Shown here: positions 62,415 through 64,000 of the stretch, piece by piece
How the letters are laid out: each line of letters opens with the position of its first letter
Position numbering within the stretch: position 1 is the stretch's first letter
Source of the DNA: a virus
Lineage: Duplodnaviria > Heunggongvirae > Uroviricota > Caudoviricetes
Strand: one strand, 5' to 3'
Virus record (IMG/VR): IMGVR_UViG_3300046359_000179
Coordinates: 11,944-75,943 of that record
Length of the DNA stretch: 64,000 bases
Translations under genes and position numbers: made by a program
Notes under the pieces: model-generated
What the model was told of the DNA's origin: nothing
Database searches by the model: none
The model's input: only the letters and a program-made list of their open reading frames with translations

Positions 62415-63839
62415 TTAATCCTCTAGCTTGCTAATTTCAACGCCTTCTTCAGCATATGATGTTTCATCAGCCATAAGCTCAAGAACGCTTTTCTCTGATT
62501 GAACCACTAGAGGATGGCTCATAATTAATGCGACTAGTTCTTCATCCAGGTTTTTGGTTTGGAACTTCTTTACTTCTTTACCGGGAAGTTCCAAAGATTT
62601 CCAAGCGCCAGAAGACTTTACGACTCCGAGATCTTCCATCATGTCAAGAAATCCGGAATACTTATTCATGCCAGATGCGTAAGGCACTTCCACTTCCACT
62701 CGAGTTCCGACTTGCGCAAATCGTGATTTATAAGTTTCAACCTTCATGCGAACCCCAATAATATCAGAGCCGTCCTTTAGTTTTGCGGGGACGATCAACA
62801 TGATCTGGCTTGCAGAATAGCGAATTGCGTTGTTCACAATCCACAGACCTTGACCATTCATCAAATCAGTGTTTGGATACACTTGGTGGGTCACTAGGAA
62901 CGTCATCGGGTTTCGCTTGATACGCGACACAATGGTTCGAAGCATGTGCTTAGACTGCTTAGCTCGTTGACCCTGATCGCCTTTCTGAACACCTGCTTGG
63001 AAGTGATCATTTTCAGAATCGGTAATTAGCATGTCGATTGAGTCTAATGCAATTACTACTGGCGGACTATCAGGATTATCGCGGCCATAGGTTTTTTCGT
63101 AAGACGTGACGAATTCAGAAATAACCTTGACAACGTCTGCAAAGGTAGTTACACCTGCATATAGAAAATTATCAGGATCAACATTGACGCCGATCTTTTT
63201 CAGGTAACCAATATCGAGCGCATGTTCTGAATCAAGCATAACAACAAATGCACCCTGTGCTTGCGCATTCTTTACAATGTTTGACAGGATGAAACTTTTA
63301 CCACTATTGTGGGAACTAATACCGGTTCCACCCCAATATCGATGGTTATCATGTGCCACCTCAAAATCCCAAACCGGCTCATTTCGCCCGGTTTGCTCTA
63401 CAGCAGCCTGCTGCAATCCACTTGATGTGATTACTTCTAAAGTGGTAACATCTTTTGCGAATACCCAGCCAACAGAGGTTTCGACAAGGTGGTCATCTGA
63501 ACAGACCATTTCATGATCGACGGTGTTAACCTTCACAAGGTTTCGCGGGTTTTTCTCAAATACTGTTGGCACATACTGTGGGCCATCTGGGGTATCTACC
63601 ATTAATGTCTTACCGGATTTCGCCGCATCGACAAAATCGCGCATGGTCATTTGCTTCAGATTTGCAAGGACGTGTGCATCCCATGCAGCCTTCAGCTTAT
63701 CGGTTCCGACGCTAAATTCGTCATCCGGAGCGGCGAGTAAATCCTCAAAAATAGAATCTGAAATTCCAATTTTTGATACCAACTCTTCGCGGGTGTAAAA
63801 ACTTAAAAGCTCTTTTAAAATCGTATTTTTATTAAACAT
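62415..63839 (-). CDS. uvsX: UvsX C-terminal fragment: C-intein (~178 aa) fused to the UvsX C-extein (RecA-like core)
   Basis: ..VWDFEVAHDNHRYWGGTGISSHN|SGKSF.. then DSEHALDIGYLKKIGVNVD and YSGFLDMMEDLGVV matching T4 UvsX; AGGA RBS before MFNKNT. Confidence 0.65.
   Translation of the reverse strand: MFNKNTILKELLSFYTREELVSKIGISDSIFEDLLAAPDDEFSVGTDKLKAAWDAHVLANLKQMTMRDFVDAAKSGKTLMVDTPDGPQYVPTVFEKNPRNLVKVNTVDHEMVCSDDHLVETSVGWVFAKDVTTLEVITSSGLQQAAVEQTGRNEPVWDFEVAHDNHRYWGGTGISSHNSGKSFILSNIVKNAQAQGAFVVMLDSEHALDIGYLKKIGVNVDPDNFLYAGVTTFADVVKVISEFVTSYEKTYGRDNPDSPPVVIALDSIDMLITDSENDHFQAGVQKGDQGQRAKQSKHMLRTIVSRIKRNPMTFLVTHQVYPNTDLMNGQGLWIVNNAIRYSASQIMLIVPAKLKDGSDIIGVRMKVETYKSRFAQVGTRVEVEVPYASGMNKYSGFLDMMEDLGVVKSSGAWKSLELPGKEVKKFQTKNLDEELVALIMSHPLVVQSEKSVLELMADETSYAEEGVEISKLED
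63306..63839 (-). other. C-intein (IntC) of an atypically split intein
   Basis: Ends with block F/G-like VWDFEV..HN followed by Ser. Confidence 0.55.
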
Positions 63840-63867
63840 GTTAGTCCTTAAGCGTATTTTGCCATTA

Positions 63868-64000
63868 CTCTTTTTTAATTTCTGGCGCAAGACCCGGATC
63901 AGTCTTAAACACATACGCAGAAATTACTTCATCGGCAGGCAAGCACCCCGAAGGGCCAGCCAGGGCTGTCACTCGACCTTGGGGAATGCCTTTAACGAAG
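63868..64000 (-). CDS. uvsX: UvsX N-terminal fragment (partial at window edge): N-extein ..GRVTALAGPSG plus 26-aa N-intein CLPADEVISAYVFKTDPGLAPEIKKE*
   Basis: ..GIPQGRVTALAGPSG aligns with T4 UvsX ..GGMQSGLLILAGPS; stop at 63865; next ORF starts 63839 in another frame. Confidence 0.55.

Follow-up and report, generated by a model that had tools for sequence, protein, structure and literature searches.

Introduction

It is well established that inteins can occupy the P-loops of ATPases that act in replication and recombination (PMC4760082). The atypical split sites of natural split inteins are either S1, directly after strand β2, or S2, after helix α1. S1 is represented by VidaL and PolB16, whose N-terminal intein fragments (IntN) have 16 and 15 aa, and S2 by AceL-TerL (25 aa) and GOS-TerL (37 aa), the latter two also being short in their IntN and of phage or metagenome origin (PMC13014065). 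Here we describe an element of the S1 kind in a 64,000-nt stretch of DNA from an uncultured, jumbo-type tailed phage, positions 11,944 to 75,943 of the IMG/VR record IMGVR_UViG_3300046359_000179, hereafter the window. On its minus strand, the recombinase gene uvsX appears to be cut inside the Walker A motif by a naturally S1-split class-1 intein, and UvsX would be made by trans-splicing of two proteins; we put the probability of this reading at about 0.88. The kind of element is already known, VidaL being a characterised tool intein.

The closest described systems resemble the locus in different respects. VidaL (PDB 6vgv/6vgw), also atypically split, has an IntN of 16 aa against 26 aa in the window, where an extra tail of ~10 aa is present. 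Its 145-residue construct has no counterpart of the 61-aa helix-turn-helix (HTH) domain predicted in the 178-aa C-terminal fragment (IntC) of the window, and the two inteins share about 33% identity in a global alignment. Phages of the PA5oct group (PA5oct, MIJ3, Paride, and others) have a related intein, broken in the same loop, that divides UvsX at an identical position of the P-loop. However, in PA5oct a 477-aa open reading frame (ORF) lies between the halves and the IntC has no HTH, whereas in the window the spacer is 25 nt long and the HTH is present. The first of two UvsX inteins in Salicola phage SCTP-2 (gp204) shares the insertion point and the family, but it lies in one ORF, with no HTH and no split. 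The Mtu RecA intein occupies the RecA-a site and the Pho RadA intein follows the GK of the P-loop; both are contiguous, have other insertion points, and are distant in sequence from the intein of the window. We take the host gene of VidaL to be uvsX, judging by the sequences that flank it and by its nearest relatives; the title of the PDB entry gives no more than the name 'VidaL'. The split inteins of the 2009 Dassa set (gp41-1, NrdJ-1, IMPDH-1, and others) are reportedly split at the canonical site.

Results

Organization of the locus

Read from the window edge at 64000, the open minus-strand frame gives ...FVKGIPQGRVTALAGPSGCLPADEVISAYVFKTDPGLAPEIKKE up to a TAA stop at 63865-63867. This N-terminal ORF (N-ORF) runs past the window edge, and its full length was taken from longer contigs identical in sequence to the window: the 474-aa product of the second ORF (C-ORF) is found unchanged on 14 public metagenome contigs, and the upstream ORF is complete on the longer ones. 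It encodes 88 aa, of which 62 are extein residues (MSLSFLKDFKK...ALAGPSG), 66% identical to the N-terminus of the intein-free UvsX of Ralstonia phage RsoM2USA, and 26 form an IntN that aligns with block A of the VidaL, SCTP-2, and PA5oct inteins. The C-ORF begins with ATG at 63839 (MFNKNT...) and ends at 62415; IntC residue 178 closes ...VWDFEVAHDNHRYWGGTGISSHN, and from residue 179 onward the protein reads SGKSFILSNIVKNAQ..., the RecA-family core. The features are as follows, all on the minus strand.

63946..64000, 3' end of the N-extein of uvsX-N, ...FVKGIPQGRVTALAGPSG; ORF start outside the window; UvsX-like PHROG positions 22-84
63868..63945, IntN, 26 aa, CLPADEVISAYVFKTDPGLAPEIKKE; Cys1 at 63943-63945, predicted β1-β2 hairpin and ~10-aa tail
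63865..63867, TAA stop of the N-ORF, identical in 6 assemblies; TGA in two relatives, L012 and L028
63840..63864, intercistronic spacer of 25 nt with the ribosome-binding site AAGGA at 63845-63849
63657..63839, IntC residues 1-61, N-terminal extension: predicted HTH domain, then connecting helix
63306..63656, IntC residues 62-178, Hint splicing core: α1 and blocks B, F, and G
62418..63305, C-extein, 296 aa, from Ser+1 (SGKSF...): rest of Walker A and RecA core
62415..62417, TAA stop of the C-ORF
62366..62394, terminator-like hairpin and T-run after uvsX-C (L004 11446-11474 converted to window coordinates)

An earlier sequence-only reading of this DNA had described a minus-strand frame ...FVKGIPQGRVTALAGPSG running into CLPADEVISAYVFKTDPGLAPEIKKE with a stop at 63865, followed by a second ORF carrying ~178 aa with an intein block F/G-like end before SGKSF; both descriptions hold, and the full N-ORF that was to be sought upstream is now at hand. 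The good ribosome-binding site and the MFNKNT start proposed for the second ORF also stand, while the distance between the ORFs is 25 nt and not 26 nt. An alternative start at ATG 63914, giving a 499-aa ORF, is unlikely; that ORF overlaps the N-ORF in another frame. A terminator-like signal follows the C-ORF and none was found between the two ORFs, and thus the two ORFs are probably co-transcribed.

The host gene and the insertion site

The C-extein matches the Pfam RecA domain (2.6e-12) and the UvsX-like PHROG (1.4e-35), and is 56% identical to UvsX of RsoM2USA. On the PHROG UvsX profile, aa 4-63 of the N-ORF occupy positions 22-84 and aa 1-260 of the C-extein positions 84-323, the extein pieces meeting exactly at position 84; their sum is 62 + 296 = 358 aa, with no residues lost or gained. 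RsoM2USA and 12 related contigs, the latter 66-86% identical to the C-extein, have an uninterrupted uvsX that encodes about 353-360 aa. These intein-free relatives read ...GIPQGR(I/V)T.LAGPSGAGKSFILSN..., with GPSGAGKSF straight across the insertion point, and the P-loop DNA of intein-less uvsX reads …GGNCCNTCNGGNGCNGGNAAR…. In the window the insertion point lies inside Walker A, between GPSG and SGKS. The sole junction change relative to the intein-free genes is Ala to Ser at +1, which supplies the nucleophile for a class-1 intein and still fits Walker A (GPSGSGKS).

The neighbours of uvsX encode a gp32-like single-stranded-DNA-binding protein, a UvsY-like mediator (3.7e-9), and a UvsW-like helicase. 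Judged by these matches, the host gene, already read as uvsX in the sequence-only proposal, is a UvsX/RecA-family recombinase in a gp32 / uvsX / uvsY-like / uvsW module. A megablast comparison of the region with 50,697 phage records gave no match, indicating that the phage is not a deposited isolate. Matches in Alishewanella, Stenotrophomonas, and XacN1 that seemed to enter the intein proved to be intein-free, the alignment overhang being spurious.

A VidaL-type intein with an S1 split

Identification of the insertion comes from three sources. First, residues 62-177 of IntC match the VidaL intein in a phmmer search of PDB sequences (E=4.2e-16). The VidaL crystal construct reads ESG-(C1A)LPKEAVVQIRLTKKG...GIVSH(N→A)-SGK; its flanks are ESG and SGK against PSG and SGK in the window, and the two inteins share block A and the Cys1/Ser+1 pair. 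Second, the class-1 residue set is present, namely Cys1, His117 of block B (CSDDH), Asp158 of block F (VWDFEV), His177 and Asn178 of block G (SSHN), and Ser+1; in a 37-sequence alignment of the family, His117, Asp158, His177, and Asn178 are nearly invariant. Third, an AlphaFold2 model of the joined halves built with this alignment has a predicted local distance difference test score (pLDDT) of 91.8 and a predicted template-modelling score of 0.87, the same fusion modelled from the single sequence reaching a pLDDT of 39 and confidence being obtained only with the alignment. The best Foldseek match of the model is VidaL 6vgv (E=8.9e-12, template-modelling score 0.89 normalised to VidaL), with other inteins next, and the predicted fold is the Hint horseshoe. 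The similarity to intein blocks A, B, F, and G, on which the sequence-only proposal of a VidaL-type intein with a very short IntN had been made to depend, is thus present, and the alignments with UvsX and VidaL that it called for agree with it.

Helix α1 (MTMRDFVDAAK, with MTMRDF at aa 64-69) sits in the IntC and not in the IntN, which places the split at S1. The 26-aa IntN would comprise the β1-β2 hairpin (~16 aa), equivalent to the IntN of VidaL, and a tail of ~10 aa toward the inserted domain; only the first ~16 of its 26 residues match the VidaL IntN, a point beyond the sequence-only reading. On the combined evidence of sequence and model, the insertion is assigned to class-1 inteins of the VidaL type with an atypical S1 split.

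Selection on both intein halves

The rates of substitution were compared with those in a diverged IMG/VR relative (L012; 90% amino acid identity, synonymous divergence dS about 1-2) by the method of Nei and Gojobori. The ratio of nonsynonymous to synonymous rates (dN/dS) is 0.059 for the N-extein, 0.037 for IntN, 0.231 for IntC residues 1-61, 0.024 for the Hint core, and 0.015 for the C-extein. These ratios indicate purifying selection on every segment, with both intein halves constrained like the recombinase itself, which fits a need for splicing to obtain UvsX and argues against a decaying element.

Decay is nevertheless an alternative, although a very improbable one. The intein would no longer splice, and uvsX would be a pseudogene, or its fragments would have another role, with recombination provided by another gene. 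The absence of a homing endonuclease is in line with this possibility, as its loss precedes intein decay in the homing cycle; also, splicing is deduced here from sequence and the gene set is that of the window. Against it, the strong purifying selection on the intein halves and the exteins is seen at near-saturated synonymous divergence, all catalytic residues are intact, and Ala is replaced by Ser at +1 just as splicing requires. Moreover, no second uvsX that might supply an alternative product, and no further copy of this intein or of the HTH, was found in the window, and the gp32, uvsY, and uvsW partners are intact.

The split is conserved

A junction segment of 301 nt is identical in 6 independent assemblies from different samples. 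The two ORFs are retained in L012, where the stop is TGA instead of TAA and the spacer has 17 nt. In the more distant L028, L030, and L031, the IntC ORF comes right after an N-ORF of 88-91 aa; the spacer measures 15 nt in L028, and gene coordinates give 12 nt for L030 and 4 nt for L031. The ORFs are offset in frame by 1 in the window, by 2 in L012, and by 0 in L028, the three loci for which this was worked out. Inteins with an IntN of 25-26 aa of the same pattern are found in the window, L012, L028, L029, L030, and L031, which are members of an HTH-bearing UvsX subfamily. At the junctions inspected, an AG-rich ribosome-binding site precedes the ATG; thus the intein parts lie in separate translation units, with stop, ribosome-binding site, and ATG all present. 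The differing frame offsets imply that neither a sequencing frameshift nor a conserved translational recoding accounts for the split, and from the compared sequences we consider it genuine and conserved.

Read-through or frameshifting could in principle yield a single precursor that splices in cis, and in L028 the ORFs are indeed in the same frame with a single TGA between them. This is very unlikely given the varying offsets, the TAA stop of the window, and the lack of any slippery or conserved sequence in the spacer; furthermore, in PA5oct, in L029, and at the locus of P0001 (a member of the family surveyed below) a whole ORF of ~400-480 aa separates the halves. A sequencing or assembly error, that is, a frameshift or false stop in a truly contiguous cis-splicing uvsX, was a refutation foreseen for the sequence-only proposal. 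Because the frame of the C-ORF is open as far upstream as ATG 63914 and thereby overlaps the N-ORF, a single indel could join the two frames, and the inserted domain is also known from contiguous inteins (P0016 and P0077 of the same survey). It is still scarcely credible that such an error would recur in 6 independent assemblies, and that four relatives would keep two ORFs with differing stops, offsets, and spacers (4-25 nt, the window included), with a ribosome-binding site ahead of the ATG at the junctions inspected, while VidaL and PA5oct are split in the same loop. Finally, the halves of split inteins are generally known to bind tightly and might serve as a dimerisation handle for a non-covalent two-chain UvsX that works unspliced, but this too is hardly tenable, since a 204-residue intein stuck in the Walker A loop (GPSG...SGKS) is hard to square with ATP binding and the conserved Cys1, block B His, His-Asn pair, and Ser+1 would lack an explanation.

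Proposed trans-splicing pathway

By analogy with the established class-1 pathway, from which the individual steps are inferred, the preferred reading of trans-splicing can be set out as follows. The two adjacent cistrons would be translated separately into UvsX(1-62)-IntN, with the 26-aa IntN (9.5 kDa), and IntC-UvsX(63-358), with the 178-aa IntC (52.7 kDa). The hairpin of IntN would then dock onto IntC, whose Hint fold is predicted to be incomplete without it. An N-S acyl shift by Cys1 would occur at Gly62-Cys1, the resulting thioester would be attacked by Ser+1 in a trans-esterification, and Asn178 would cyclise with the help of His177, releasing the intein. An O-N shift would then create a native Gly62-Ser63 bond. 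The expected product is a 358-aa UvsX of 39.5 kDa with an intact P-loop, GPSGSGKS, and the junction peptide VTALAGPSGSGK, and the excised intein would consist of two chains, an IntC of 19.9 kDa that carries the HTH and an IntN of ~2.9 kDa.

The extension of IntC and the intein family

The IntC of the window is ~55-60 residues longer than that of VidaL, and nothing equivalent to its residues 1-61 is present in VidaL, PA5oct, or SCTP-2. This extension aligns as a helix, an HTH, a linker, and a helix with the pattern (F/W)xxHxxxNS. Among 18 homologous extensions, Pfam HTH_3 matches 7 (best 3.8e-6), and GerE and NUMOD1 match 3 each. We therefore predict that residues 1-61 form a λ-repressor-like HTH of the Xre/Cro-C1 type, placed in the loop where the intein is split; thus ~61 of the 178 IntC residues, taken for intein in the sequence-only reading, would be an extra domain outside the splicing fold.

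When 1.84 billion representative proteins were searched exhaustively with HMMER, 156 family members emerged (P-labels denote these members), nearly all of them inserted in Walker A motifs. The junction is SSHN/[STC]GK[ST] in UvsX/RecA-like and PhoH-like proteins and SSHN/T[GN]VGK[ST] in DnaB-like helicases, the slash marking the end of the intein; some members are in terminases. Among the best 150 of the 156, 61 start directly at α1, being S1-split without an extension like VidaL, and about 45, which are representatives of clusters at 50% identity, start with an extension of 30-68 aa like that of the window; the remainder are contiguous or of other kinds. The contiguous P0016 holds the full HTH-type extension inside the loop; P0130 has these motifs too, in a shorter insertion. 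In the contiguous P0077, the IntN part (CVPEDEVVLAAFIDNGPNTIPEITTE...) matches the IntN of the window including its tail and is followed by a shorter helical segment. From these contiguous relatives with the domain inside the loop, it follows that the intein of the window is split in the linker between β2 and the inserted domain.

The role of the HTH is a matter of weakly supported guesswork. It may be a DNA-binding accessory of the homing apparatus and not a part of the splicing chemistry, but we hold this only tentatively, and a purely structural role is the main alternative. A simple origin of the HTH as a remnant of an endonuclease of the PA5oct type is not supported: BLASTP against gp275 of PA5oct detected no similarity (E=0.21), and L029 has the HTH alongside an endonuclease-like ORF.

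Putative homing machinery at the S1 loop

In the PA5oct-group Pseudomonas jumbo phages, cultured viruses that also have the split intein, uvsX is fractured into three genes (PA5oct, L001, 691-3697): gp276 encodes UvsX-N with a 17-aa IntN, gp274 encodes IntC with UvsX-C, and gp275 (477 aa) lies between. The PA5oct intein is 54% identical to VidaL. No significant match of gp275 was found in Pfam or PHROGs; from its C-terminal motifs, inspected by eye, it reads as a Vsr-like nuclease or homing endonuclease. Both gp276 and gp275 are annotated 'hypothetical' in databases. L029 combines a 408-aa ORF between the halves, again apparently a Vsr-like nuclease by eye from the same C-terminal motifs, with an HTH-bearing IntC. 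The P0001 locus, that of the closest representative at 50% clustering, has an HTH-bearing IntC and a 406-aa intervening ORF known by size and position only. Fractured genes, in which a free-standing homing-endonuclease gene lies between the halves of a split intein, were described by Dassa et al. 2009 (PMC2677866), and their layout is shared by PA5oct and L029, with the endonuclease recognized by eye, and by the P0001 locus in size and position. P0050 (653 aa) combines an IntC of the S1 type with an extein behind it that has a CGKS P-loop; by eye, NUMOD3-like repeats and a PD-(D/E)XK nuclease seem to be fused in frame to the IntC N-terminus, and if so, a homing-endonuclease domain would sit at S1 and not at the canonical site. 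In SCTP-2, the intein is a plain contiguous mini-intein and the S1 loop is empty.

Thus the S1 loop in the P-loop intein family is found empty (SCTP-2), split (VidaL), split with an ORF (PA5oct, L029, P0001 locus), with a fused nuclease (P0050, by eye), with a contiguous HTH (P0016, and shorter helices in P0077), and with an HTH on a split IntC (the window). In the window, there is no free-standing endonuclease ORF and a 25-nt spacer is all that separates the halves, so that the locus is best taken for a mobile 'fractured' uvsX in a state without the endonuclease, its break lying at S1 and not at the canonical site. It is conceivable, though we think it doubtful, that the S1 loop is a second natural docking site for homing machinery and that the HTH is a working DNA-binding module. 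If the former is true, it would explain the origin of 'atypical' split inteins; if the latter, the HTH may, for example, bring the precursor or the excised intein to DNA for homing, or couple UvsX maturation to DNA.

Several further observations concern these relatives. In both L001 (937-988) and L029 (1736-1793), a spacer with a long hairpin separates the IntN ORF from the ORF that follows it, and the loop of this hairpin contains the T4-late-promoter-like TATAAATA in L029 and GATAAATA in PA5oct, possibly a regulatory signal for the endonuclease gene. In the L029 phage, which is that with the fractured uvsX, the gene of a UvsW-like helicase also appears fractured (5060-7494), with a 346-aa ORF ending in an intein N-part after a DEC motif, a 339-aa nuclease-like ORF, and a Helicase_C ORF. 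The UvsX of SCTP-2 (L003 2243-4213) has two contiguous inteins, that in Walker A being VidaL-like (53% identical) and the second lying further downstream (ISGG/CLVADTD...VVSHN/SGQIF, slashes marking its ends); the gene is annotated as a hypothetical protein.

Other elements of the phage

Upstream of uvsX-N and outside the window, a strong hairpin and T-run follow the gp32-like gene (L004 9660-9708) and end ~10 nt short of the uvsX-N ribosome-binding site; no sigma-70-like promoter was found between this hairpin and uvsX-N. The ribonucleotide reductase large subunit (915 aa; 56192-58939, minus strand) has a contiguous intein at about aa 296-440, as judged by weak Hint, PT-HINT, and Intein_splicing matches between the reductase domains. 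A faint intein signal is also seen in the terminase large subunit (663 aa), which is encoded immediately beyond the window (L004:1-576). With these two signals, the phage has at least two, probably three, inteins. In addition, an IS607-like insertion element occupies 10475-12303 of the minus strand, with a serine recombinase (11707-12303; Resolvase 2.8e-19) directly upstream of TnpB (10475-11710; HTH_OrfB_IS605, OrfB_IS605, and Cas12f1-like TNB domains).

Discussion

Several points weigh against the interpretation of this locus as a trans-splicing uvsX with an HTH-bearing intein. Trans-splicing, translation from the proposed starts, and the activity of UvsX are all inferred. The intein part of the window has no intein match in Pfam or PHROGs even at E≤10, while the contiguous SCTP-2 homologue has weak Intein_splicing and PT-HINT matches; as these profiles are blind to the intein of the window, its recognition comes from the PDB match, the family alignment, and the model, and the model itself is of an artificial fusion of both halves. 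The search for another uvsX covered the window, and a second intact recombinase may be encoded elsewhere in the genome. As to the extension, no Pfam HTH match was obtained for that of the window itself, the middle of the domain is variable and has an indel relative to L012, DNA binding by the predicted HTH is putative, and the domain could be purely structural.

In a search of the literature that did not cover the original VidaL papers, where a prior mention is possible, we found no description of an HTH-bearing subfamily with a 25-26-aa IntN, no report of endonucleases, whether free-standing or fused, that make use of the S1 loop, and no published split uvsX of PA5oct-like phages. The paper on MIJ3 describes a split PolB intein only and never mentions RecA or UvsX. 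One paper places all intein-nested endonuclease domains at one conserved site (PMC6801210); the series of S1 loop states (empty, split, with an endonuclease gene, with an HTH) qualifies this single-site view and offers a concrete origin for atypically split inteins.

Natural split inteins with a short IntN are wanted as ligation tools (PMC13014065). The subfamily with a 25-26-aa IntN and the Cys1/Ser+1 pair is a candidate source of orthogonal pairs, in which the HTH could be removed or exploited.

As 12 closer relatives lack the intein, its presence in this lineage appears to reflect a recent gain or retention. For the biology of the phage, the consequence is that a core recombination enzyme would depend on the post-translational ligation of two polypeptides.

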